Assembly: GCF_000026545.1 (NCBI RefSeq) | Contig: NC_011601.1 | Source: Escherichia coli O127:H6 str. E2348/69 | GTDB taxonomy: Bacteria > Pseudomonadota > Gammaproteobacteria > Enterobacterales > Enterobacteriaceae | DNA length: 64,000 nt | Reading direction: 5' to 3' (one strand) | In this document: in pieces, positions 16,977 through 33,287 of the stretch | Layout of the letters: every line of letters starts with the position of its first letter | Numbering within the stretch: position 1 is the first letter of the stretch | The notes under the pieces: generated by a model | What the model was told of the DNA's origin: nothing | Seen by the model: the letters and a program-made list of their open reading frames with translations, nothing else | The model's database searches: none | Program-made: the position numbers and the translations under genes

Positions 16977-17683
16977 TCGAACTCGTGATTGTATCGCGTC
17001 TCCTTGAATATCCGGATGCTGCCTTATGGCAGCATCAACAAGAGATGTTTGAGGCGATTGCCGCGTCGAAAAATCTGCCAAAAGAGGATGCCCATGCGCT
17101 GGGCATTTTCCTGCGCGATTTAACGACGATGGATCCGCTCGATGCCCAGGCGCAGTACAGCGAACTGTTCGACCGTGGCCGCGCCACGTCACTGTTGCTA
17201 TTTGAACATGTTCACGGTGAATCCCGTGACCGCGGCCAGGCGATGGTGGATCTGCTGGCGCAGTACGAGCAGCACGGCTTGCAGTTAAACAGCCGCGAAT
17301 TGCCCGACCATCTGCCGCTGTATCTGGAGTATCTGGCGCAGCTGCCGCAAAGCGAAGCCGTGGAGGGTTTGAAAGATATTGCGCCGATTCTGGCATTGCT
17401 GAGCGCGCGTCTGCAACAGCGTGAAAGCCGTTATGCCGTGCTGTTTGATCTGCTGCTGAAACTGGCGAATACCGCAATCGACAGCGACAAAGTGGCGGAA
17501 AAAATTGCCGATGAAGCGCGCGACGATACGCCGCAGGCGCTGGATGCAGTCTGGGAAGAAGAGCAGGTTAAATTCTTTGCTGAAAAAGGCTGCGGTGATT
17601 CAGCAATCACTGCTCATCAGCGTCGCTTTGCCGGTGCCGTCGCGCCGCAATATCTGAATATCACCACCGGAGGACAGCACTAA
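16973..17683 (+). CDS. narJ: Nitrate reductase assembly chaperone NarJ
   Basis: 236 aa, operon position. Confidence 0.95.
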
Positions 17684-18360
17684 TGCAATTCCTGAATATG
17701 TTCTTCTTTGATATCTACCCGTACATAGCCGGGGCGGTCTTCCTGATTGGTAGCTGGCTGCGTTATGACTACGGGCAGTACACATGGCGTGCGGCGTCCA
17801 GCCAGATGCTGGATCGCAAAGGGATGAACCTCGCGTCGAACCTGTTCCATATCGGTATTCTGGGGATTTTTGTCGGTCACTTCTTCGGTATGCTGACGCC
17901 GCACTGGATGTATGAAGCTTGGCTGCCGATTGAAGTGAAACAGAAAATGGCGATGTTTGCTGGTGGTGCCAGCGGCGTACTGTGTCTGATTGGCGGCGTG
18001 CTGTTGTTGAAACGTCGTCTGTTCAGCCCACGCGTGCGTGCAACGACTACCGGAGCGGATATCCTGATCCTGTCGCTACTCGTTATCCAGTGCGCGCTGG
18101 GCCTGCTGACCATTCCGTTCTCTGCTCAGCATATGGACGGTAGCGAGATGATGAAACTGGTTGGCTGGGCGCAGTCGGTAGTGACCTTCCACGGTGGCGC
18201 TTCTCAACATCTTGATGGCGTGGCGTTTATCTTCCGTCTGCACCTGGTGTTGGGGATGACGTTATTCCTGCTGTTCCCTTTCTCGCGTCTGGTACACATC
18301 TGGAGCGTCCCGGTGGAGTATCTGACGCGTAAGTATCAGCTGGTGCGCGCTCGTCACTAA
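17683..18360 (+). CDS. narI: Respiratory nitrate reductase 1 gamma subunit (cytochrome b)
   Basis: 225 aa membrane haem protein, operon position. Confidence 0.95.
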
Positions 18361-18471
18361 TTATCTAAACCAAACATCGGCGGTTACACACTGCCGATTT
18401 TTCGGATTGTAGGGAAACGTACTTCATCTATATGATTGGTCCACCTATGGAGCAGTGAAGGAGCACTGACC

Positions 18472-19479
18472 GTGGCTCGACCTAATCAACCGACGATCTC
18501 CGCGGCGTTAAAAATAATCGCCACGGGGATCGCCTTACCCCCTGATCAAATCACTTCTCAACAACTGGATGTTCAGTTAAGTAAGCCAGTTGGCTATGTT
18601 GAGCGACGTTCCGGTATTTGCTGGCGCTATTTTGCCCGCAATGACGCCAGCCAGGCCGAACTGGCGGCAGAGGCTTTACATAATGCGTTAGTAGCGGCAG
18701 CCTTAAATCCTTCTGATATTAATCTGCTAATTTGTGCATCGGCCATTGCCGTACAGGCATTACCCTGTAGCGCAATTCATATTCTTAAAGCCGCAGGCAT
18801 GCCCGCAGGCGTTGCCGGGTTTGATATCAACAGTAGCTGTGTGAGCTTTATTTCCGCTCTTGAAGTCGCTGCCGGATTATTAAACTGTGGAGCATATCGG
18901 CGCATTGCCATCGTTTCGGCAGATATTGCTTCACGCGGTATCGACTGGGATCATGAAGAGTCTTCATTAATTTTTGGTGATGGCGCGGCGTGCGCGATTG
19001 TTGAGCGGGGCGATGGGCGCAGCGGGATTATCGCTAGCCTGATCGAAATGTATCCCGAAGGCAGCGAACTGTGTGAAATACGCGCCGGCGGTACGCGGCG
19101 TAATCCTCGTTCTGGTGTGAGTGACAGCGACTTTCTTTTTCATATGCAGGGGAAACCGCTGTTTCGTTTTGCTTCTTCGCTTATTGAAGATTATTTTTCT
19201 CGGTTGCTGCAAAAAAGCAGTCTGCAACTGGATGATATCGGCACGGTCGTTCCACATCAGGCCAGTCATCTTTCCCTTGAACATATGCGTAAACGGCTGC
19301 GAGTGCCGGAATCTGCGCTCATCGATGTGTATCGTTTTTACGGCAATCAGGTCGCGGCCTCTATCCCCACGGCGCTGCATGAAGCGGTGATTAGCGGTCG
19401 TTTCACAGCGGATAAACCTGTAATGTTGATTGGCACGGCAGCGGGACTAACGCTGGCTGGCATGGTGCTTTTACCGTGA
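18472..19479 (+). CDS. FabH-like beta-ketoacyl-ACP synthase III family condensing enzyme
   Basis: Cys-His-Asn triad motifs in context (INSSCVSF, VVPHQAS, YGNQVAASIP); start placed at GTG 18472 after AAGGAG (ORF opens at 18436). Confidence 0.75.
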   Translation: MARPNQPTISAALKIIATGIALPPDQITSQQLDVQLSKPVGYVERRSGICWRYFARNDASQAELAAEALHNALVAAALNPSDINLLICASAIAVQALPCSAIHILKAAGMPAGVAGFDINSSCVSFISALEVAAGLLNCGAYRRIAIVSADIASRGIDWDHEESSLIFGDGAACAIVERGDGRSGIIASLIEMYPEGSELCEIRAGGTRRNPRSGVSDSDFLFHMQGKPLFRFASSLIEDYFSRLLQKSSLQLDDIGTVVPHQASHLSLEHMRKRLRVPESALIDVYRFYGNQVAASIPTALHEAVISGRFTADKPVMLIGTAAGLTLAGMVLLP

Positions 19480-20492
19480 AGATCCTCGTAACAGGGGCGA
19501 CCAGCGGCCTTGGGCGAAATGCCGTGCAATATTTGTTGCAATCGGGTGAGTCGGTTGTGGCAACAGGGCGAAATTGTGAGGTTGGCAGAAGCCTGACAAA
19601 CGCAGGCGCACAGTTTGTGGCTCTCGATTTAACCGAGGCAACCGAGGATGACTGCGCCCGCCTGATGGACGGCTGCGATGCCGTCTGGCACTGTGCGGCA
19701 AAGTCCTCGCCCTGGGGCGACAAAACGGCGTTCTGGCTTGCCAATGTCAAAGTGACCCACACTCTGGCACAGGCGGCAGGCAGGCTGAATATTCCCCGGT
19801 TTATCCATATCTCCACGCCTGCGGTTTACTTTGATTTTCAACATCACAATGACCTGCCAGAAACGTATCTTGCGCGAGCATTCTCCAGCCATTATGCCAG
19901 CAGTAAATATGCCGCTGAGCAGGTTATTGCTGGCGCTGTTTCTCGATATTCTGCCACGAGATTTATTCTTTTGCGTCCCCGTGGTTTGTTTGGCCCCCAT
20001 GACCAGGTAATTGTTCCTCGTCTGATGCAGCAATTGCAACAGGGCGGTGGTTGCTTACGTTTGCCGCGCGGGGGCGACGCGTTATTGGATCTCACGTTCG
20101 TGCAAAACGTGGTGTATGCCATGCGGCTGGCAACGAACGTTGAAGGCTTACGCTCGGGCAGTATTTACAACATCAGCAATCACCAGCCGCAGCAGCTATC
20201 GGTGATGCTTGACGCCTTGCTGCACCAGCAACTGGGCTTGAGTTACCGCATTGCTGCTGTTCCCTGGTCGCTGCTTTCTCTGGTCGCGCGTGGCCTGGAA
20301 CTGTACGGGAAGTGCGTTAATCAGGAACCTGTTATCACACGATACAGCGCCGGAACACTCTGTTTCGATATGACGCTGAGTGCGCAAAAGGCCATTACAG
20401 AGCTGGGATATCGCCCGCGCTTTTCGATGGAACAAGGTATTGCAATCACGGGACAATGGCTGAGGGAACATGGCAAAAATAACCGCATTTGA
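19476..20492 (+). CDS. NAD(P)-dependent epimerase/dehydratase (extended SDR) family protein
   Basis: N-terminal Rossmann motif ILVTGATSGLG and YASSK catalytic motif; GTG start overlaps upstream stop. Confidence 0.75.
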   Translation: MKILVTGATSGLGRNAVQYLLQSGESVVATGRNCEVGRSLTNAGAQFVALDLTEATEDDCARLMDGCDAVWHCAAKSSPWGDKTAFWLANVKVTHTLAQAAGRLNIPRFIHISTPAVYFDFQHHNDLPETYLARAFSSHYASSKYAAEQVIAGAVSRYSATRFILLRPRGLFGPHDQVIVPRLMQQLQQGGGCLRLPRGGDALLDLTFVQNVVYAMRLATNVEGLRSGSIYNISNHQPQQLSVMLDALLHQQLGLSYRIAAVPWSLLSLVARGLELYGKCVNQEPVITRYSAGTLCFDMTLSAQKAITELGYRPRFSMEQGIAITGQWLREHGKNNRI

Positions 20493-21276
20493 AACGGGCT
20501 GGTGTACCCATATTAGCTGTATTGCGCTGAAAGGGGCAGGGCTGAAAGTGTGCAAATTCCCCGCCCGCGCCTGGCTGCTGGAGGTGGGCGACAAACGGTG
20601 GCTGTGGGACACAGGCTATTCATCGTGGTTCGAACACTACACGCAATCTGGTGTGTTTCGTCTTTATCGTCAGGTCACGCCGGTTTATTTCGATCCGCAA
20701 CAGGCGCTGGTGCGGCAACTTTCTGCCACCGGCCTCGCAGCGAAAGATGTTGATGCGATTATTCTGTCGCATTTTCACGCTGATCATATTGCTGGTCTGC
20801 GTGATTTTCCTGATGTTTCCTGCATCTGTTCTGGTGAAGGCTGGCGGCAAGTAAGAACTCTGCGTGGTGTCACTGCGCTGCGCCAGGCCTTTGTGCCAGG
20901 GCTAATCCCGGAGAATTTTGACTCCTCACCGCGCTTTATTGAAAGTTTCGCATCGGTGAATTTGCCCGCGCAACTGGCACCGTTTGAGTGCGGCTATTTG
21001 CTGCCAGAAAGCAATGGCGAAATTATTCTCGTGCCGCTTCCCGGACATGCTGCCGGACATATTGGCGCGTTTGTGTTAACCGACAACGGCTGGACTTTAC
21101 TGGCTGGCGATGCGGCATGGGCGCCAGCTAACTACCGGGAGCTGCGAGGGCCTTCACCACTGGCGCATCTGGTTATGTCCGACAGCCACGCCTACTACCA
21201 CACGCTTGGGCAACTCCATCAGCTTTGGCAAAACGGTGTAGTGGAGATTCGTTTGTGCCATGAGGGGGATTTATGA
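20470..21276 (+). CDS. MBL-fold metallo-hydrolase
   Basis: HxHxDH motif (ILSHFHADHIAGL). Confidence 0.75.
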   Translation: MAKITAFETGWCTHISCIALKGAGLKVCKFPARAWLLEVGDKRWLWDTGYSSWFEHYTQSGVFRLYRQVTPVYFDPQQALVRQLSATGLAAKDVDAIILSHFHADHIAGLRDFPDVSCICSGEGWRQVRTLRGVTALRQAFVPGLIPENFDSSPRFIESFASVNLPAQLAPFECGYLLPESNGEIILVPLPGHAAGHIGAFVLTDNGWTLLAGDAAWAPANYRELRGPSPLAHLVMSDSHAYYHTLGQLHQLWQNGVVEIRLCHEGDL

Positions 21277-22559
21277 TCCCGTTGGCTTTACTCTGGCGCT
21301 ACTTTCGTACCCGCAAGCTGCATTTCACCGATCGCGAGGCACTGGAAAACTGGCAGGCAAAAAGGCTGCATCAGTTCCGGCAAAATGTCTTATCTCATAG
21401 CCCGTGGTTTCAGCGTTATCTGACGTTGCCCTTTAATCAGTGGCCAATGATGGATAAAGCGTTAATGATGACGCACTTCGATGAGATGAATACCGCAGGT
21501 TTAAAGCGCGACGAACTTCTCGATTGTGCAATGCGCAGTGAGCAGAGTCGTGATTTCAAACCCTGCGTTGGCAGGTTCAGTGTTGGGCTTTCATCAGGTA
21601 CATCGGGTCGTCGTGGGCTTTTTGTTGTTAGCCCGCACGAGCAACAGATGTGGGCCGCCGGTGTGCTGGCAAAAGTGTTGCCCGACGGTTTATTTGCCAA
21701 AGAGCGGGTGGCGCTGTTTCTGCGCGCGGACAACAACCTGTATCAAAGCGTGAATAATCGCTGGTTAAGTCTCGATTTTTACGATCTGCTAGCGCCATTT
21801 CAGGCGCAACTCAAACTTCTCCAACAGCGAGCGCCCACGATTATTGTCGCGCCAGCTCAGGTATTACGCGCACTGGCGCTGGAGGTGATGGCCGGCGAAT
21901 TGACGCTAAAGGTCAAAAAAGTGATTTCGGTGGCGGAAGTTCTGGAGCCGCAGGATCGGGAATTACTGCGCAACGTGTTCCACAATGTGGGGGAAATTTA
22001 TCAGGCGACAGAAGGCTTTCTCGCTTCCACCTGCCGGTGTGGAACGTTACATCTCAACGAAGAGTTTGTTCACATTGAACCGCAATGGCTGGATGAGCAC
22101 CGTTTCGTGCCGATCGTCACAGACTTTACCCGCACCACACAGCCGATAGTGCGTTATCGACTGGATGATGTGCTGGTGGCAAGCGAACAACCATGCTCCT
22201 GTGGCAGTGCAACAATGGCGATTGCGCGTATCGAAGGGCGGCAGGATGACCAACTGCAACTACCAACAAGATCCGGCGATATTCAGACCGTTTTTGCCGA
22301 TGCCTGTAGTCGTGTGCTGGCAATGACACTGCCGCTAACAGTCGATTATCGCCTGCTACAAACCGGGTCAGCACAATTGACGTTAATCGCCGATTGCGAG
22401 CTGTGGATGCTGGAGCATTGCCGGGAGGCGTTGAATGCCTTGTTTATACGCCAGGATATCGCTGTCGGGCAATTAATTTGGTCGCTGGAACCGCAAACTG
22501 TGCCAGTCTCTTTTACAGCCAAGCGGCGGCGCATTGTGCGTCAGTGGGGGCGGGAATGA
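21273..22559 (+). CDS. Adenylate-forming enzyme, F390-synthetase/PaaK-like acyl-CoA ligase family
   Basis: SSGTSGRRG phosphate-binding loop typical of PaaK-type adenylating enzymes; overlaps upstream stop. Confidence 0.65.
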   Translation: MIPLALLWRYFRTRKLHFTDREALENWQAKRLHQFRQNVLSHSPWFQRYLTLPFNQWPMMDKALMMTHFDEMNTAGLKRDELLDCAMRSEQSRDFKPCVGRFSVGLSSGTSGRRGLFVVSPHEQQMWAAGVLAKVLPDGLFAKERVALFLRADNNLYQSVNNRWLSLDFYDLLAPFQAQLKLLQQRAPTIIVAPAQVLRALALEVMAGELTLKVKKVISVAEVLEPQDRELLRNVFHNVGEIYQATEGFLASTCRCGTLHLNEEFVHIEPQWLDEHRFVPIVTDFTRTTQPIVRYRLDDVLVASEQPCSCGSATMAIARIEGRQDDQLQLPTRSGDIQTVFADACSRVLAMTLPLTVDYRLLQTGSAQLTLIADCELWMLEHCREALNALFIRQDIAVGQLIWSLEPQTVPVSFTAKRRRIVRQWGRE

Positions 22560-23158
22560 GCAATTCACTGCTACGCCTGAAACAGATGCTGCTGGGCTGG
22601 GGAACTGTTGGGGTTATCTACAACTTTAGCGACTACCTGCAAGGTGAGGGATATCAATTAACACCGTCAATAATTGATAATTGGATTTCGTTTTCCCCCT
22701 CCGCTGTGTGGCTGTATCTCTCGTTTTTTTTCATTGTGCCGTTAGGTTATTTATCCACGCCACTTTGCCACCTGCGCTGGCTGGCCCGTTCAATGCAAAT
22801 TTCCGCACTGGTGGCAGGCGTATTTTATCTTCTCTGGCCCACAACCATGCATTATCCCTCGTTTGATCAGATGGGGATATCCGCGGGCGCACTCAACAGG
22901 CTGATCGCCATTGACTCAAGCCAGAACTGTTTCCCCTCCTTACACGCCGCGCTAACGCTGTTGGCGGTATGGGCGATTGCCAAAAAGGGGAACCGTTGGC
23001 TGACGCTAATGAGCGTGGTCTGGGCGATAGCAATCGCCTTTTCGATTCTGCAATTACGCAGACATTTATTTATCGATTTAGTAGGCGGCGCGTTGCTGGC
23101 GTCGATTTGCGGTTGGATATGCGCAACATGCGAGAAAAGGAAGACACAATATGAGTGA
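22556..23158 (+). CDS. PAP2-family membrane phosphatase-like protein
   Basis: ATG 22556 overlaps upstream stop (ATGA); PSLH and R..H..D motifs in hydrophobic context (ORF opens at 22394). Confidence 0.6.
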   Translation: MSNSLLRLKQMLLGWGTVGVIYNFSDYLQGEGYQLTPSIIDNWISFSPSAVWLYLSFFFIVPLGYLSTPLCHLRWLARSMQISALVAGVFYLLWPTTMHYPSFDQMGISAGALNRLIAIDSSQNCFPSLHAALTLLAVWAIAKKGNRWLTLMSVVWAIAIAFSILQLRRHLFIDLVGGALLASICGWICATCEKRKTQYE

Positions 23159-24275
23159 TTTATTATTCCCCATCATATCGATGGTACTGTTGGTGTTAGC
23201 CGAAGCAGGCGTGTTGCAATTCACCGGGCGGCAAAAAGTGGACTGGCTGGACGTTATTTTTAATATCAACTCCGGTCATATGATGCTGTGGTTATTTCGC
23301 TGCCTGGAAGTGCTCTGCTATGGACTGGTGATCAATCACTTCAGCCTTGGACTGTTTGATAATGCACCGGTGATCCTGCTGTGGTTGTTTACTATCCTGG
23401 CGTGGGATTTCGGCTTTTACTGGCTACATCGCTGGCATCACGAAATGCGCCCGCTGTGGGCGGTACATGTGGTGCATCATCAGGGGGAACACTACAACCT
23501 GTCATTAGGCGTGCGGAATTCGTGGTACTCCTCGTTAACCTCAATCCCGTTTTTTATGCTGCTGGCGATGCTTGGTGTGCCGTTGCAGATCTTTTTGGCG
23601 GTTTCTATTATTCACTATAGTTGGCAATTTTTTAACCATAACGCACTAACGCCGAAACTGGGCTGGCTGGAAAAAGTGCTGATCACGCCTTCGCATCATC
23701 GCGTCCATCATCTGAATCAAAAGCAATATGCCGATACCAATTACGGTGGCACCTTTTTGTTGTGGGATAAACTTTTCGGTTCGTATAGTGCCGGGCCGGA
23801 ATACGACGTAGGCTACGGCGTAAAAAATAGTCGCTTGTCCTGTAACCCGATGCGCGAGAGTAATCTGCCATTTTTACGCTTAATGGGCTTTCGCTCATTT
23901 GGCAAAGCGATTGAAGGTCGCTACCAGAGTTCTCCATGGGCGGTAGGGGCAGGGGTGATCCTGCTGTTTATGCTGGTGCTTGGCTACATTCAACAATATG
24001 GCTATGGCATTGAGTTTATTACCAGCGAGCAAGCCGTATTATTTGTTCTGCTGGCGGCAGGCTCCGTTGCGCTGGGGGGCATGAGCGACGGGCAGCATTG
24101 GGGTATGATTTTGTGGTGCTCTGTGACGTTGTCACTGCTCTATTTTATTGTCTATATGTGTTCATGGAGTACTCTGCTCTGGAAGGGATTAGTGGGTATT
24201 CTGCTGGCCCATTGCCTGTTATTTGTAATCGGCGTAGGACGTAAATCGCTAAGGAAACAGTATGAACCTGTTTAA
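23151..24275 (+). CDS. Fatty acid hydroxylase/sterol desaturase superfamily membrane protein
   Basis: Histidine boxes HRWHH, HVVHH, HHRVHH in polytopic membrane protein. Confidence 0.7.
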   Translation: MSDLLFPIISMVLLVLAEAGVLQFTGRQKVDWLDVIFNINSGHMMLWLFRCLEVLCYGLVINHFSLGLFDNAPVILLWLFTILAWDFGFYWLHRWHHEMRPLWAVHVVHHQGEHYNLSLGVRNSWYSSLTSIPFFMLLAMLGVPLQIFLAVSIIHYSWQFFNHNALTPKLGWLEKVLITPSHHRVHHLNQKQYADTNYGGTFLLWDKLFGSYSAGPEYDVGYGVKNSRLSCNPMRESNLPFLRLMGFRSFGKAIEGRYQSSPWAVGAGVILLFMLVLGYIQQYGYGIEFITSEQAVLFVLLAAGSVALGGMSDGQHWGMILWCSVTLSLLYFIVYMCSWSTLLWKGLVGILLAHCLLFVIGVGRKSLRKQYEPV

Positions 24276-25353
24276 TCCCGACAGGTTAATCACTTTTCCT
24301 GCCGATGATCCGCAACTGGTGAAGCAGCTGCAAAGCGGTACGAAAGTTTATCTGGCGAAATCAGGCGATCATCGGTATGCCGACGGCTGGGCATTCGCCA
24401 AAATGGCGGCGTTGATTATTGCTTGTTTCTCCTGTTACTTACTGGCGTTGTTTCAACGTCAATGGGGACTGTATCTGTTGTGGTATCTCGCGATGATGTT
24501 TTGCGCCATGTTGTTAGCGGTCAATGTGGTGCATGACGCTTCGCATGATGCGTTTTTGCGTGGTAAAAAGACCAATGCCCGACTTAACCGGTGGGTTGCT
24601 TTTCCTATGGGGCTAGATCCGGACTGCTGGCGGGTGCGCCACGTTCGCTTTCATCACGGCTTTACCAATATTGAATTTTACGATCCGGACACCGCAGAAA
24701 ATGGCATTCTTCGCCAGACGCCGTGGCAACGGTGGCGACCTTTTATGCGCCAGCAACATCGCTATTGGCCACTGGTCGCCGCGCTCACCTTTCCCTGGTA
24801 TATCTGGGTAGTGGACTGGCTCGATCGCGCAGGGTTTACGCCGGTCACGCGACATCTGGCCCTGCGAGGCTTTGCTGGCTGGGGATATTTCTTAGCCGGG
24901 AAACTGGCGCATTGTGCGCTGTGTCTGATACTTCCCTGGCTTTTGTCTGATTTTAGTTTTATGACCATCCTGCTGACTTATCTGCTCAGCCAGCTGCTGG
25001 CGTCATTGATTTTTGTGACGTTGATTATTGGAACGCACTGGGCGAAGGGACATACGCAGTTACCACCAGAAGAGGGCAAAATGCCCGTGGGCAGACTGGC
25101 GCATACCTTTGTTACCACCTTTGACTGGACGCCGCAACCTGCATGGCTTGGCTACTGGCTGGGCGGGATTAATCTGCACCTTACCCATCATCTGTTTCCT
25201 CACTGGCATCATCGCCATTATCCGGCGCTAAGCCGCATTATTGCACAAATTGCCAGCCAGCAAGGTCTGGATTATCAGTTGTTGACGTTAGCGGATTTGT
25301 TGAGGCTACAGCAGCAGTTTTTACGGCAAATGGGGGAGAAGCCGAAGGCTTGA
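24262..25353 (+). CDS. Membrane fatty-acid desaturase family protein
   Basis: Histidine boxes HDASHD, HVRFHH, HHLFPHWHH. Confidence 0.7.
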   Translation: MNLFNPDRLITFPADDPQLVKQLQSGTKVYLAKSGDHRYADGWAFAKMAALIIACFSCYLLALFQRQWGLYLLWYLAMMFCAMLLAVNVVHDASHDAFLRGKKTNARLNRWVAFPMGLDPDCWRVRHVRFHHGFTNIEFYDPDTAENGILRQTPWQRWRPFMRQQHRYWPLVAALTFPWYIWVVDWLDRAGFTPVTRHLALRGFAGWGYFLAGKLAHCALCLILPWLLSDFSFMTILLTYLLSQLLASLIFVTLIIGTHWAKGHTQLPPEEGKMPVGRLAHTFVTTFDWTPQPAWLGYWLGGINLHLTHHLFPHWHHRHYPALSRIIAQIASQQGLDYQLLTLADLLRLQQQFLRQMGEKPKA

Positions 25354-25369
25354 TAATGGAATCAAGTGA

Positions 25370-25454
<85 letters not shown>

Positions 25455-25613
25455 ACGGGGTAATGCTTTTTACTGGCCTGCTCCCTTATCGGGAAGCGGG
25501 GCGCATCATATCAAATGACGCGCCGCTGTAAAGTGTTACGTTGAGAAAAATGAACTGGTTGCGTAATTTTCATCCGTAACGGATTAAAGGTAACCAGTTA
25601 TTTTTGCTGGCGA

Positions 25614-26456
25614 TTAAAGAATAATCGTCCGATTACCGTAAACAAAGACGCGCTGCGCCAGTACTTTGTATAGCGCACGACTTAAGACGTTTTTCTCGAC
25701 GTCACGACCTGCGCGCATCATATCTTCAGCTGTGTAGGTATGATCGACATGAATAACGTCCTGCATGATGATTGGGCCTTCGTCCAGATTGTCATTCACA
25801 TAGTGAGCGGTTGCGCCAATAATCTTCACGCCACGCTCATAGGCCTGGTGATAAGGACGTGCGCCGATAAACGCTGGCAGGAATGAATGGTGAATATTGA
25901 TGATCTTATTCGGGAAGCGTGCCACAAATTCCGGCGTTAATACCCGCATATACTTCGCCAGCACCACATAGTCAGGTTGATAAGCATCAATGGCATCCGC
26001 CATCTTTTGATCGTGCTCGTTGCGGCTTAACCCTTCATGGCTTACCAGCTCAAACGGAATATCAAAACGCTCAACCAGAGAACGTAAAGTATCGTGGTTA
26101 CCAATAACTGCCGCGATTTCGACATCCAGGCCGCCGTAATTGGCTTTCATCAACAAATCGCCAAGGCAATGCGCTTCTTTAGTGACCAGAATCACTATCC
26201 GGCGACGACCGGCAGGATTCAGCTCACGCACGGAGCCTTCTGGCAATGCGCTATCGAGATCCGCCAGCAGGGTGGAATCATTAAAAATCCCTTCCAGTTC
26301 CGTGCGCATAAAAAAGCGCCCGGTACGATGATCTACAAATTCATTGTTCTGCACGATATTTAACTCGTGCTTGTAGCAAATATTGGTAATACGTGCGATC
26401 AGACCTTTTTGGTCCGGACAAATAGTACGCAGAACTTTACGTTGGAGTGAATGCAT
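25614..26456 (-). CDS. purU: Formyltetrahydrofolate deformylase
   Basis: 280 aa, N-terminal ACT domain plus formyltransferase domain. Confidence 0.95.
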   Translation of the reverse strand: MHSLQRKVLRTICPDQKGLIARITNICYKHELNIVQNNEFVDHRTGRFFMRTELEGIFNDSTLLADLDSALPEGSVRELNPAGRRRIVILVTKEAHCLGDLLMKANYGGLDVEIAAVIGNHDTLRSLVERFDIPFELVSHEGLSRNEHDQKMADAIDAYQPDYVVLAKYMRVLTPEFVARFPNKIINIHHSFLPAFIGARPYHQAYERGVKIIGATAHYVNDNLDEGPIIMQDVIHVDHTYTAEDMMRAGRDVEKNVLSRALYKVLAQRVFVYGNRTIIL

Positions 26457-26505
26457 TGCTGGAAAAACCTTGTTGAGAGTGTTTGCTAAACCGTACCGTC
26501 AACCA

Positions 26506-29288: not shown

Positions 29289-30197
29289 ATGGCTGCCATT
29301 AATACGAAAGTCAAAAAAGCCGTTATCCCCGTAGCGGGATTAGGAACCAGGATGTTGCCGGCGACGAAAGCCATCCCGAAAGAGATGCTGCCACTTGTCG
29401 ATAAGCCATTAATTCAATACGTCGTGAATGAATGTATTGCGGCTGGCATTACTGAAATTGTGCTGGTTACTCACTCATCTAAAAACTCTATTGAAAACCA
29501 CTTTGATACCAGTTTTGAACTGGAAGCAATGCTGGAAAAACGTGTAAAACGTCAACTGCTTGATGAAGTGCAGTCTATTTGTCCGCCGCACGTGACTATT
29601 ATGCAAGTTCGTCAGGGGCTGGCGAAAGGCCTGGGACACGCGGTATTGTGTGCTCACCCGGTAGTGGGTGATGAACCTGTGGCTGTTATTTTGCCTGACG
29701 TTATTCTGGATGAATATGAATCCGATTTATCACAGGATAACCTGGCAGAGATGATCCGCCGCTTTGATGAAACGGGTCATAGCCAGATCATGGTTGAACC
29801 GGTTGCTGATGTGACCGCATATGGCGTTGTGGATTGCAAAGGCGTTGAATTAGCGCCGGGTGAAAGCGTACCGATGGTTGGCGTGGTTGAAAAACCAAAA
29901 GCGGATGTTGCGCCGTCTAATCTCGCTATTGTGGGTCGTTACGTACTTAGCGCGGATATTTGGCCGTTGCTGGCAAAAACCCCTCCTGGAGCTGGTGATG
30001 AAATTCAGCTCACTGACGCAATTGATATGCTGATCGAAAAAGAAACGGTTGAAGCCTATCATATGAAAGGGAAGAGCCATGACTGCGGTAATAAATTAGG
30101 TTACATGCAGGCCTTCGTTGAATACGGTATTCGTCATAACACCCTTGGCACGGAATTTAAAGCCTGGCTTGAAGAAGAGATGGGCATTAAGAAGTAA
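29289..30197 (+). CDS. galU: UTP-glucose-1-phosphate uridylyltransferase
   Basis: 302 aa, [26 protein letters not shown] motif. Confidence 0.95.
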
Positions 30198-30291
30198 CAT
30201 CCGTATCGGTGTTTTCCACGAAACGGTGTTGAGCAATCGACGCCGTTTTTTTATAGCTTATTCTTATTATATTGTCTTAAACCGGACAATA

Positions 30292-30318
30292 AAAAATCCC
30301 GCCGATGGCGGGATTTTT
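30292..30318. terminator. Bidirectional terminator between galU and hns
   Basis: AAATCCCGCC-gatg-GCGGGATTT hairpin flanked by A/T runs. Confidence 0.7.
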
Positions 30319-30340
30319 AGCATGTGCAATCTACAAAAGA

Positions 30341-30754
30341 TTATTGCTTGATCAGGAAATCGTCGAGGGATTTACCTTGCTCATCCATTGCTTTTTTGAT
30401 TACAGCTGGAGTACGGCCCTGGCCAGTCCAGGTTTTAGTTTCGCCGTTTTCGTCAACGTAGCTATATTTTGCCGGACGCTGAGCACGCTTAGCTTTGGTG
30501 CCAGATTTAACGGCAGCAAGGCTATTCAGCAGTTCGTTCGGGTCAATACCGTCAGCGATCAGCATTTCGCGATATTGCTGCAGTTTACGAGTGCGCTCTT
30601 CAACTTCAGCAGCAGCCGCGCTTTCTTCTTCGCGACGTTCGTTAACAACAACTTCTAATTTTTCCAGCATTTCTTCCAGCGTTTCAAGTGTACATTCTCT
30701 TGCCTGCGCACGAAGAGTACGGATGTTGTTCAGAATTTTAAGTGCTTCGCTCAT
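30341..30754 (-). CDS. hns: Nucleoid-associated protein H-NS
   Basis: 137 aa, [36 protein letters not shown]. Confidence 0.97.
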
Positions 30755-31357
30755 TGTAGTAATCTCAAACTTATATTGGGGTGGTTTGTTGAGGTAATAA
30801 TAGAGCCTTAAATTCAGTTGTGCAATAGCCAGGAATGTAAGGAATTCAAAATTGTTCTTTATTTTGTGCCGCCAATAATTATCTTTTCATAAAATTAGCC
30901 AGAAAAGACGCGGCATATAGCCCTATTTGCACCGATGATTTCGCAGCACGTGAGGTTAAAACTTCCTGATTCATGTCACATTTTATGGGGAGATAATCGT
31001 AGGCTGACGACCTTTCAGTCTTCTGTATTAGTCGTGTTTACGAGAATTCCCTATTAAGCGAATGATGAAAAGTAGAACAGTCGCAATAAGAGCAGGGACT
31101 TAGTATTGCACTATCTCCTGGAGGTCAACAGAGGGCTATTACATGCGCAACAGGTTAAAGATTGTGAATAGTTACCGGCAGTCATTTACCCGCTTATAAC
31201 AAGCGAGGCAGTTGTAATGATAGCTCAGAAGGATTATGCAAGGCTTCGTAAGGGAGAACGCATATACCACTTCTGTGCATACTATTGAGCTGAAAAACTG
31301 ACGAATTATGATAAACTCCAGCCAACTTTATTTCATATCATTGAGGGCCTGTGGTTG

Positions 31358-31975
31358 ATGGCACAGCTATATTTCTACTATTCCGCAATGAATGCGGGTA
31401 AGTCTACAGCATTGTTGCAATCTTCATACAATTACCAGGAACGCGGCATGCGCACTGTCGTATATACGGCAGAAATTGATGATCGCTTTGGTGCCGGGAA
31501 AGTCAGTTCGCGTATAGGCTTGTCATCGCCTGCAAAATTATTTAACCAAAATTCATCATTATTTGATGAGATTCGTGCGGAACATGAACAGCAGGCAATT
31601 CATTGCGTACTGGTTGATGAATGCCAGTTTTTAACCAGACAACAAGTATATGAATTATCGGAGGTTGTCGATCAACTCGATATACCCGTACTTTGTTATG
31701 GTTTACGTACCGATTTTCGAGGTGAATTATTTATTGGCAGTCAATACTTACTGGCATGGTCCGACAAACTGGTTGAATTAAAAACCATCTGTTTTTGTGG
31801 CCGTAAAGCAAGCATGGTGCTGCGTCTTGATCAAGCAGGCAGACCTTATAACGAAGGTGAGCAGGTGGTTATTGGTGGTAATGAACGCTACGTTTCTGTA
31901 TGCCGTAAACACTATAAAGAGGCGTTAGAAGTCGGCTCATTAACGGCTATTCAGGAAAGGCATCGCCACGATTAA
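31358..31975 (+). CDS. tdk: Thymidine kinase
   Basis: [21 protein letters not shown]-loop N-terminus and C-terminal zinc ribbon. Confidence 0.95.
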
Positions 31976-31986
31976 TAAGAATTTCT

Positions 31987-33287
31987 TTACTGACAGGTTG
32001 AGCAGGGCGCTTTTATCCTGTCAGTTCGTTTTACGCACTTCTTCCGGGCTATACACCCTTCTCGGCAGTTTTTTAACGCCGCTATACGCCTCACAGAGCG
32101 CTGTAACCTGTAAAGTACAATATCGCTGTGTGTAGGCGTTATACATCGTCGCAAATATGATGAAGGACAATGCTGCCGGTTTATGGAAAAGTTCTTTTGG
32201 GAAAACAAAAAACGGCCCCAGAAGGGGTAATGCCAGTCAGTTAAGCAACTGACTGGCTCTTTTTCGGGGCTGTGGGGTATTTCCAGGGCCTCTCCTTTAC
32301 CACTCTCGGGAAGGCCCTTTCCCTTCTTGTCGGTAATTTCACTAGTTGTCCCATACTTGCAAGATCGCGCATCAGCTCCGGTATACGTCCCGGTGAAGCG
32401 CATGGCGTCCGTCATCGATGTCAGCAGATGGCAGACTTTTCCTTTGCGCGTCACGGTCAGCAGGCGGGCTGTCACCTCATTTCCCAGTCCCGGCCACTTT
32501 TTTCGTGCCTGCGGGCTGGTTTTCAGCTTCACCAGATGATCGCCTTTACCCAGTTTTCTGATCTCTTCATATTGCGCTCCCTTTCTGAGAGGGAACATCC
32601 AGTGGCGGTGTTCTCCCGCCAGGCTCCAGGTATTTAACAGTCCTGGTGAGTAATAACCTTTATTCATTAACGTCAGGGTGTTATCGCCGGTTTGTTCTAT
32701 AAGTTGCTCAGCAAGCTCATTTCCGCTGTTCTTCATCGTGCCGAAGGCTGCAGTCGTCAGCAGATGGCTGGTCAGTTCCATCTGGCAGACCATTTTGACC
32801 TGCGGGTAGAGCGCCGGGTTCCCGGCATGTGTCTGGCGGGGGAAGGCTGCATCGTTCTCTGGTGTATCCGGTGTGCGCCAGAACACACCATCGATGGCCA
32901 GCAGGGTCAGGCCGCACCAGTGCGGATGCGGCGTGGCGTTATGCCAGAGCTGCGCTGTTTTCGTGAACACGCGGCGGACAGCCTCAATTCCCAGACGCTA
33001 GCGGGTCTGAATAACGGCACTGGGGCAACGAAGGGGCGATTGCCCGGCAGCATGATGTCCAGGCGATTCACAATCTGGTGAAGAGGTTCTTTACGCTCAA
33101 GCGCCATGCCAACAATACACCAGACCATCATTTCGAGGGGAAGACGGCGCTTGCGTAGCGTTACAGTACCTGATTCGGCAAGGCAACGAGAGATGAGTTC
33201 GGGGTCGAGGTAATCCCCCAGAGAAGTCAGTGGGTTACGCAGAGAATCGTAACGGGATACCAAACCAAGGGCCTGTCCAATGAGCAT
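31987..33287 (-). pseudogene. insZ: IS4-family transposase, disrupted (two ORF fragments; the distal fragment reads through the left inverted repeat into flanking DNA)
   Basis: ORFs 32907-33287 (N-terminal part) and 31987-32970 (DDE-domain part) are in different frames; resembles the insZ pseudogene between tdk and adhE. Confidence 0.6.

Follow-up and report, generated by a model that had tools for sequence, protein, structure and literature searches.

The window, a stretch of 64,000 nucleotides from Escherichia coli O127:H6 str. E2348/69, carries on its plus strand, at 18472-25353, a cluster of seven genes located between narI and a tRNA-Tyr gene, whose products belong to enzyme families of the lipid-biosynthetic type. 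All seven open reading frames (ORFs) were confirmed, with 100% identity to the RefSeq annotation of E2348/69 (NZ_CP059840.2), in which the names of the genes are generic only. An earlier description made from the nucleotide letters alone, hereafter the sequence-only reading, had placed seven same-strand, tightly packed or overlapping genes here, and its coordinates, junctions and flanks were confirmed. The motifs and families it named are all present in the Pfam and NCBIfam results and in the translations, and those of the condensing enzyme, the metallo-hydrolase and the adenylating enzyme are kept in the homologue alignments; its description of a lipid-type enzyme cluster is supported. The features of the locus are listed below.

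18371-18402, plus strand: probable narI terminator, a hairpin followed by a T-run (atcggc...gccgattttt), read from the sequence just past the narI stop
18458-18464, plus strand: ribosome-binding site GAAGGAG of the condensing-enzyme gene, 7 nt 5' of the GTG at 18472, which is the RefSeq start
18472-19479, plus strand: KAS-III/FabH-like condensing enzyme (ketosynthase, KS), 335 aa, GTG start (Pfam ACP_syn_III, ACP_syn_III_C)
19476-20492, plus strand: extended short-chain dehydrogenase/reductase (SDR), a 3-beta-HSD/OleD-like ketoreductase, 338 aa (Pfam Epimerase, 3Beta_HSD; NCBIfam)
20470-21276, plus strand: metallo-beta-lactamase-type (MBL) protein, a lactonase-fold di-metal hydrolase, 268 aa (Pfam Lactamase_B; fold search)
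21273-22559, plus strand: ANL-superfamily protein, a PaaK-family adenylate-forming enzyme, 'F390 synthetase-related', 428 aa (TIGR02304; fold search)
22556-23158, plus strand: PAP2-superfamily membrane enzyme, 200 aa (Pfam PAP2_3, PAP2)
23151-24275, plus strand: FA_hydroxylase-superfamily membrane di-iron enzyme, 374 aa (Pfam FA_hydroxylase)
24262-25353, plus strand: FA_desaturase-family membrane di-iron enzyme, 363 aa (Pfam FA_desaturase)
25370-25454, minus strand: convergent tRNA-Tyr(GTA), the right boundary of the cluster, 16 nt past the desaturase gene (ARAGORN; Rfam tRNA, 53 bits)

All six gene junctions overlap, by 4-23 nt each. The PAP2 protein, the hydroxylase and the desaturase are polytopic by their hydrophobic segments, and the four preceding core proteins have few such segments or none. 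The best explanation of this layout is a single translationally coupled operon composed of two modules. On the left flank narI ends at 18360, and the probable terminator behind it suggests that the cluster has its own promoter within 18403-18457; a promoter and terminator scan returned no promoter in the narI-KS spacer, its promoter component performing no better than chance. The tRNA was the sole match in an Rfam search (E<=1) of 17500-26500, with no riboswitch and no RtT element. The GC content of the cluster, 0.48-0.54, is close to that of the flanks. Farther away, the GC content drops to about 0.42 at 30000-32000 of the window (the hns-tdk region), compared with 0.47-0.56 across the rest of the 12-30 kb region.

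Among 5,426 complete E. coli genomes, 673 contain a match to the cluster, one of them partial, and the presence of complete copies in the other 672 supports a functional operon. A genome thus has, in practice, either the whole cluster or none of it. Two of the 674 matching places lie on plasmid-labelled records, and in strain S7 (H70) the cluster is split, with 70% of it in one place. The named carriers include O25b:H4-ST131 EC958, 'clone D i2', 'FDA strain Seattle 1946' (ATCC 25922) and E2348/69, all of which we take to be phylogroup B2 strains, clone D i2 being of the ST73 type. The cluster is absent from K-12, whose corresponding locus holds only two tRNA-Tyr genes together with four RtT repeats. 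The narI-purU position is occupied by these seven genes also in E. fergusonii, E. albertii and E. whittamii. In comparisons with three other Escherichia species, the dS values of the cluster genes (0.19-0.69) resemble those of narI and purU, and dN/dS amounts to 0.06-0.20 for each of the seven genes, indicating that these are real genes under purifying selection. Because the locus is shared with three sister species and dS is like that of the flanks, the cluster is judged, from sequence comparison, to be accessory in E. coli yet ancestral to the genus, having been lost from most E. coli lineages. A recent horizontal acquisition was considered and ruled out on the same two grounds. The sequence-only reading was right that the cluster is not universal in E. 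coli and that its composition does not look foreign, the native base composition following from the ancestral state, whereas the term accessory holds for the species and not for the genus.

The comparison with K-12 gives some further detail on the locus. Between 25370 and 25616 of the window, E2348/69 carries one tRNA-Tyr before purU and lacks RtT repeats, whereas in K-12 (L090 1491-2745) tyrT, tyrV and four RtT repeats replace the cluster; cluster loss and expansion of the tyrT-RtT array thus appear to be alternative states of the locus. The cluster adjoins the downstream end of narGHJI in Escherichia and also in Superficieibacter, an Enterobacter sp. and several Serratia species. In 13 loci narI lies upstream of KS, at a distance of about 0.1-1.1 kb in L012, L013, L017, L020, L021, L023, L024, L026 and L086. 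The adjacency is a relic of old synteny or else a sign of a functional link, and is a curious arrangement, as the desaturase and the hydroxylase need O2 and Nar is anaerobic.

The KS contains a catalytic triad, Cys123/His262/Asn292, that is invariant across 26 homologues and aligns with the triads of MxnB, CorB and FabH. Its scores fall under every FabH cutoff in NCBIfam (PRK07204, 330.6 vs 402; PRK09352, 210.6 vs 249; TIGR00747, 192.9 vs 292). In phmmer searches against PDB sequences, MxnB (2e-49, 171 bits) and CorB (7e-45, 157 bits) were both matched over their full length, followed by FabHs at 1e-42 to 1e-23 and PqsD at 5e-22, whereas the OleA chains 3row, 3s21 and 4kti gave only 4e-7 to 8e-6. 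No OleA family was found among the NCBIfam matches of the KS. The residue preceding the conserved Pro98 is Leu, Ile or Val in the family, a position read without direct alignment to Glu117 of OleA. An assignment as a resorcinol synthase of the DarB/StlD type was rejected, with 29.3 bits against a cutoff of 450 for the StlD/DarB family and 18.4 against 550 for DarB.

The SDR carries the motifs GATSGLG and YASSK. Its best NCBIfam matches are two OleD (2-alkyl-3-oxoalkanoate reductase) models, with 154 and 146 bits (E 5e-45), followed by HpnA with 101 bits and then by sugar-nucleotide enzymes. The OleD scores lie far under the curated cutoff of 580, and at the level of sequence the protein is therefore a relative of OleD and not an OleD equivalog.

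In the MBL, the residues of the HFHADH motif and its partners (H101, H103, D105, H106, H193 and D214) are invariant across 27 homologues; the seventh di-metal ligand, a C-terminal His (CHEGDL), is seemingly present, in a region that is truncated in several of the aligned sequences. A Foldseek search of the PDB with the AF2 model (pLDDT 95.3) placed lactonases in all top 26 positions (AhlX, 4-pyridoxolactonase, GcL, AiiA, AiiB), with a TM-score of about 0.75, and neither PqsE-type nor glyoxalase-type thioesterases were among the 50 listed fold matches. No named lactonase equivalog is reached in NCBIfam (best 56 bits vs 325). Since the MBL is embedded in a biosynthetic operon, its substrate is probably a pathway intermediate and not an N-acylhomoserine lactone (AHL). 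Two other assignments were set aside. A PqsD/PqsE-type pair is disfavored by the weaker score of PqsD relative to the FabHs and by the absence of PqsE both from the sequence matches of the MBL and from the listed fold matches. A defence or anti-Pycsar role would rest on faint precomputed Apyc1 matches, in a context that is biosynthetic.

The ANL enzyme matches the TIGR02304 model, 'F390 synthetase-related protein', with 755.5 bits (cutoff 251.9) over model positions 2-430 of 430. Its P-loop reads GLSSGTSG, of which SSGTSG is kept in the homologue alignment, and a C-terminal lysine, K417, is present. The AF2 model (pLDDT 92.6) finds PaaK1, BT_0428, AjiA1, NatL2 and ClxA as its top Foldseek matches, at E of about 1e-20, whereas long ANL enzymes are matched at merely about 1e-10 with a TM-score near 0.4. 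In NCBIfam and Pfam, the 428-aa protein gave no OleC and no PF00501 match; weak NCBIfam matches to the flexirubin ligase FlxY were observed. Both the sequence and the predicted fold thus indicate a PaaK-family enzyme and not an OleC. Its relatives are numerous: at E<=1e-30 they amount to 499 representatives (50% clusters), a collection of species-representative genomes contains at least 594 stretches that match, and TIGR02304 is regarded as a separate family with no characterised member.

Regarding the membrane enzymes, the PAP2 protein is matched by Pfam PAP2_3 (1.9e-9) and PAP2 (3.8e-8) and has three hydrophobic segments. The motifs PSLH and RRHLFID are present, where the superfamily has C2 (PSxH) and C3 (RxxxxxHxxxD-like), and the C1 motif KxxxxxxRP was not seen in the translation; the lack of this phosphatase motif is typical of transferases of the Aur1/inositol phosphorylceramide (IPC)-synthase and sphingomyelin-synthase type, and the protein may be such a transferase. 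The sole NCBIfam match is a weak one (20.6 bits), to phosphoinositol dihydroceramide synthase. The hydroxylase belongs to FA_hydroxylase (PF04116, 2.8e-28), retains its histidine boxes, and has the ornithine-lipid hydroxylase OlsE as its best NCBIfam match (67 bits); it displays eight hydrophobic windows, and a C-terminal extension holds about four hydrophobic segments. The desaturase belongs to FA_desaturase (PF00487, 2.0e-24), with the boxes HDASH, HVRFHH and HLTHH and four hydrophobic segments. None of the three proteins has a significant relative among the PDB sequences.

The genomic context was analysed in 80 loci of TIGR02304 relatives, onto which the seven E. coli proteins and four Yersinia tail proteins were mapped and in which all flanking ORFs were clustered. 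A core of KS, SDR, MBL and the F390-synthetase-related ligase recurs in Enterobacterales, in Burkholderiales (Ralstonia, Cupriavidus, Janthinobacterium, B. ubonensis), in Neisseriales (Snodgrassella, Chromobacterium, Aquitalea), in Haemophilus sputorum (Pasteurellales) and Gilliamella, in Firmicutes (Paenibacillus, Brevibacillus, Anaerosolibacter, Gracilibacillus, Streptococcus), and in Jonesia (Actinobacteria) and a Saccharibacteria metagenome-assembled genome (MAG). The SDR, MBL and ligase genes form an unbroken block in almost all loci, irrespective of the place of KS, which leads the core in Proteobacteria and Firmicutes and closes it in Jonesia, Saccharibacteria and Streptococcus. The exceptions are H. 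sputorum (L065), where an ATP-grasp pair lies between SDR and MBL, and Gracilibacillus (L089), with one gene between MBL and the ligase.

The genes that accompany this core fall into several interchangeable tails. Tail A, the PAP2-hydroxylase-desaturase arrangement of E. coli, in some cases with a second desaturase, is found also in Serratia, Pectobacterium, Erwinia, P. syringae, Ralstonia and Janthinobacterium. Tail B consists of a second SDR, whose best matches are again the OleD models, an HpnI/Glyco_transf_21-like family 2 glycosyltransferase (GT2), a 194-aa protein of no assigned family and an MGT-like GT1, and occurs in the Yersinia pseudotuberculosis complex, Citrobacter, Buttiauxella, Mangrovibacter and Paenibacillus caui. 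Both tails are present together in four loci (Superficieibacter, Klebsiella sp., an uncultured Enterobacteriaceae MAG, L035, and Cedecea). Tail C, observed in Firmicutes, H. sputorum and Uliginosibacterium, combines an ATP-grasp enzyme (PRK06849 'hypothetical protein', 382 bits) with a partner gene of about 380 aa. Two members of the partner were scanned without an NCBIfam match, the first of them also without a Pfam match; in the same Pfam batch one member gave a FemAB_like/GNAT match that is not assignable to a particular sequence, and the partner is possibly FemAB-like. Finally, an Mgs-like GT4 (alpha-monoglucosyl-diacylglycerol synthase-like) adjoins the core in the Saccharibacteria MAG and in Jonesia, with 221 and 73 bits, respectively. 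The positions of these last two kinds of tail are given here by locus.

L081, 5988-7169 and 10292-11446: tail C
L065, 5950-8161: tail C
L069, 10275-12501: tail C
L079, 6035-7213: GT4 beside the core
L085, 5666-7042, minus strand: GT4 beside the core

A further arrangement occurs in Noviherbaspirillum humi (L061 10281-13289), where the gene after the ligase encodes 1,002 aa, including an adenylation (A) domain of the nonribosomal peptide synthetase (NRPS) type (383 bits), and a PAP2 gene lies further downstream; the NRPS-type gene is considered another head-group variant. Each tail would serve either to place a polar head group on a lipid hydroxyl or to modify the chains, and this combination of a constant core with swappable head-group tails, as read from gene content, is the strongest clue to function.

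This context also bears on whether the seven genes form one pathway at all. The PAP2, hydroxylase and desaturase enzymes could instead remodel an existing phospholipid or lipid A, with the core doing something unrelated. Such a division is consistent with the match of the hydroxylase to OlsE, which hydroxylates an existing membrane lipid, and with the fact that the sole PDB match of the PAP2 protein is the lipid A phosphatase LpxE, at a non-significant E of 0.49. The genes, however, overlap in a single operon, the PAP2-hydroxylase-desaturase tail follows the core in many gamma- and beta-proteobacterial genera, and where this tail is absent other head-group modules fill the same position. Taking into account this recurrent association, two separate pathways are considered quite unlikely.

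A second alternative is that the product of the core is small and diffusible, for instance a dialkyl alpha-pyrone or a different lactone that serves for signalling or as an antibiotic, comparable to what MxnB, CorB or PpyS make, with the MBL serving in lactone processing or self-protection. The pyrone-forming MxnB and CorB are indeed the closest solved relatives of the KS, the MBL has a lactonase fold, and core-only genomes exist, e.g., Snodgrassella, Xenorhabdus and Cupriavidus basilensis. Most loci, on the other hand, pair the core with polytopic membrane lipid-modifying enzymes or with lipid-type glycosyltransferases, and the 80 loci show no conserved gene for an exporter, regulator or receptor beside the core. 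Furthermore, MxnB and CorB use chains bound to a polyketide synthase (PKS), and no PKS is found at the cluster. A diffusible product is therefore judged rather unlikely.

The presence of the core in the Saccharibacteria MAG is relevant to the origin of the acyl chains. To our knowledge, Saccharibacteria are without fatty-acid synthesis; if this holds for the group, the finding would favour a feed of scavenged fatty acids, with contamination of the MAG as another possibility. It also bears on the idea that an unusual acid (aryl, alicyclic or short branched) is activated by the ANL enzyme and serves the KS as the starter for fatty-acid synthesis, yielding omega-modified fatty acids that are subsequently hydroxylated and desaturated. 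Aryl or small acids are the characteristic substrates of PaaK-family ligases (PaaK, NatL2, AjiA1, ClxA), the KS retains the triad of FabH and has high scores with FabHs, and the weak FlxY matches of the ANL enzyme point in the same direction. This scheme leaves the invariant OleD-like SDR and the lactonase-fold MBL unexplained, though, and the conserved block is SDR-MBL-ANL and not KS-ANL, with no acyl carrier protein (ACP). The core, moreover, lies on a Saccharibacteria-assigned contig (L079), in a group not known to have the pathway that would be primed. There is accordingly only a small chance that starter activation describes the cluster.

The sequence-only reading had compared the cluster with Ole-type machinery and had suggested a modified lipid or hydrocarbon-like product. 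In a genuine Ole pathway, two chains would be condensed head to head, reduced, converted to a beta-lactone and decarboxylated, and the long-chain olefin so formed would be acted upon by the desaturase and the hydroxylase. The roles of OleA, OleD, OleC and OleB, the OleBCD grouping and the oleBC fusions have been described (PMC7064751), and the contiguous SDR-MBL-ANL block with a mobile KS recalls that organization; the four core roles can be mapped onto the four Ole proteins, and the best family matches of the SDR are OleD models. This part of the comparison stands. Individually, in contrast, none of the proteins passes an Ole family test, and three of the four core enzymes do not fit OleA, OleC and OleB, whereas the SDR is at least related to OleD. 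The KS reaches OleA at only 4e-7, compared with 1e-42 to 1e-49 for FabH, MxnB and CorB, the PaaK-family ANL enzyme has no OleC match, and the SDR remains at 154 bits where the OleD cutoff is 580. OleB has no counterpart, as no alpha/beta-hydrolase is encoded in the cluster or conserved across the 80 related loci, and the MBL resembles hydrolytic lactonases. A hydrocarbon-like product is hard to reconcile with the PAP2, glycosyltransferase (GT2/GT1/GT4) and ATP-grasp tails, which need a polar handle, because a bare olefin would give them nothing to act on. The sequence-only reading is supported in part: the cluster thus probably follows an Ole-like logic without being an Ole system, a hydrocarbon product is improbable, and a genuine Ole pathway is very unlikely indeed.

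The interpretation that accommodates most of these observations, and to which we assign a probability of about 0.55 as a general scheme and a lower one in its details, is that the cluster is a modular cassette that makes a hydroxylated long-chain lipid, which is then given a head group. What has been observed is the gene content, the families and folds of the enzymes with their catalytic residues, the arrangement as an operon, the selection acting on it and its modular context, and from these we infer the substrates, the order of the steps and the product. Module 1 (KS, SDR, MBL and ANL) would build the long-chain lipid scaffold. In the first step, the KS would couple two acyl thioesters by Claisen condensation, most likely as a long-chain 'interconnecting' or head-to-head reaction and not as ordinary priming of fatty-acid synthesis. 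In the second, the OleD-like SDR would turn the beta-keto group into a hydroxyl; in the third, the PaaK-family ANL enzyme would adenylate the carboxylate; and in the fourth, the lactonase-fold MBL would make, open or transfer the lactone or ester so formed. These steps would end in a lipid acid or ester that is hydroxylated and probably branched, of the 2-alkyl-3-hydroxy type. In module 2, the three membrane enzymes would decorate this scaffold in the inner membrane, the PAP2 enzyme attaching or trimming a phospho-head group and the FA_hydroxylase and FA_desaturase proteins modifying the chains by hydroxylation and desaturation. A precedent is provided by ole-type clusters with a glycosyltransferase and a hydroxylase, which are predicted to make decorated lipids (PMC7064751).

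Several points weigh against this interpretation. The triad of the KS is an ordinary Cys-His-Asn one, and its FabH score (1e-42) nearly equals that for MxnB (2e-49), so the enzyme may carry out a plain decarboxylative condensation with malonyl-ACP. PaaK-family enzymes typically activate aryl or small acids and not long-chain lipids. If the MBL hydrolysed a lactone that the adjacent ligase has made, the two steps would amount to a futile cycle. The PAP2, hydroxylase and desaturase proteins are assigned, by their sequences, at the superfamily level only, and the cluster encodes no ACP, acyltransferase or transporter.

A broader proposal, put forward tentatively and considered possible but not probable, is that the core encodes a new class of bacterial membrane lipid, non-glycerol and non-sphingoid, with a mycolate- or ceramide-like 2-alkyl-3-hydroxy scaffold and an exchangeable head group. 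The head group would be phospho in loci with PAP2, glyco in those with GT2, GT1 or GT4, and aminoacyl in those with the ATP-grasp enzyme and its partner. The cassette extends over at least five phyla and is kept in extraintestinal and enteropathogenic lineages of E. coli (phylogroup B2), the Y. pseudotuberculosis complex, Serratia and P. syringae, where it may affect the envelope or the interaction with a host.

A full-text literature search found no study of the seven-gene cluster and gave a single lead. A screen of P. syringae pv. actinidiae biovar 3 includes, among 91 reduced-virulence mutants, the Tn5 mutant TBc29 in IYO_RS29540, annotated as 'Coenzyme F390 synthetase' (PMC9823363), with a virulence score of 2, counted as infected seedlings out of six (PMC9823363). 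The P. syringae group (L002, L003) carries the same seven-gene cluster, and IYO_RS29540 is, by its annotation name only, a candidate TIGR02304 orthologue, so that a link to virulence is possible. In the same group, two same-orientation 142-aa DUF2628 genes bracket the cluster together with three further genes (L002 6611-7039 and 16051-16479; L003 4563-4991 and 16051-16479), with IS66/IS481-type transposases and an Rhs toxin gene nearby. Unlike in Escherichia, the P. syringae cluster may be a mobile unit.

Although E. coli serves as the reference for lipid metabolism in bacteria, an intact operon under selection in major pathogenic lineages has only generic annotation. The association of the core with interchangeable phospho-, glyco- and possibly aminoacyl modules points to a widespread and hitherto undescribed class of lipids, and a function could be assigned to TIGR02304, a family of hundreds of 50%-identity clusters. 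The cluster occurs in tractable strains, and the question is directly testable.

The core can be compared with several known systems. The OleABCD pathway and the related oleACD beta-lactone pathways (lipstatin LstABCD, nocardiolactone NltABCD) contain the same roles, namely a thiolase-fold condensing enzyme, an extended SDR, an ANL-superfamily adenylating enzyme and a hydrolase-type fourth enzyme. OleA is a thiolase that carries out a non-decarboxylative head-to-head Claisen condensation with Glu117 as base, and OleD is NADPH-dependent. The two kinds of system differ in that OleC is a class I ANL beta-lactone synthetase of about 550 aa (PF00501), whereas the cluster has a 428-aa TIGR02304 protein; in that the lactonase-fold MBL takes the place of OleB, an alpha/beta-hydrolase that acts as beta-lactone decarboxylase; and in the attachment of head-group and membrane tailoring modules to the cluster. 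Among solved structures, the KS comes closest to MxnB and CorB, the chain-interconnecting alpha-pyrone ketosynthases of myxopyronin and corallopyronin, with which it has the triad in common. MxnB and CorB couple two long acyl chains and form a lactone, but act on beta-keto chains bound to PKS or ACP within large PKS clusters, whereas neither PKS nor ACP is present at the KS locus, and the KS scores to them only modestly exceed those to true FabHs.

The ANL enzyme shares its fold, P-loop and C-terminal Lys architecture with PaaK1, NatL2, AjiA1, ClxA and coenzyme F390 synthetase, a family that includes both CoA ligases and direct ester-forming ligases such as NatL2; identity to these enzymes is 13-19%, and its context is of the lipid type and not aromatic. 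Similarly, the MBL has the fold and di-metal site of the AHL-type lactonases (AiiA, AiiB, AhlX, GcL) and of 4-pyridoxolactonase, with an identity of merely 16-21% and a location in a biosynthetic operon.

Superfamilies involved in sphingolipid and hopanoid tailoring (PAP2_3, FA_hydroxylase, FA_desaturase and Glyco_transf_21/HpnI-like GT2) recur in the cluster tails, and by analogy this overlap suggests the decoration of a hydroxylated non-glycerol lipid. The eukaryotic counterparts would be the PAP2 proteins of the IPC- and sphingomyelin-synthase type, the Sur2-type hydroxylase, the Des1-type desaturase and ceramide glucosyltransferase. In contrast to the sphingolipid and hopanoid pathways, the cluster has no serine palmitoyltransferase, ceramide synthase or squalene-hopene cyclase, and the matches are weak and at the superfamily level. 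Pathways in which a thiolase, an SDR, an ANL enzyme and a hydrolase act together on lipids are thus known; what is new in the present cluster is the replacement of two of these enzyme families and the addition of modular head-group tails.

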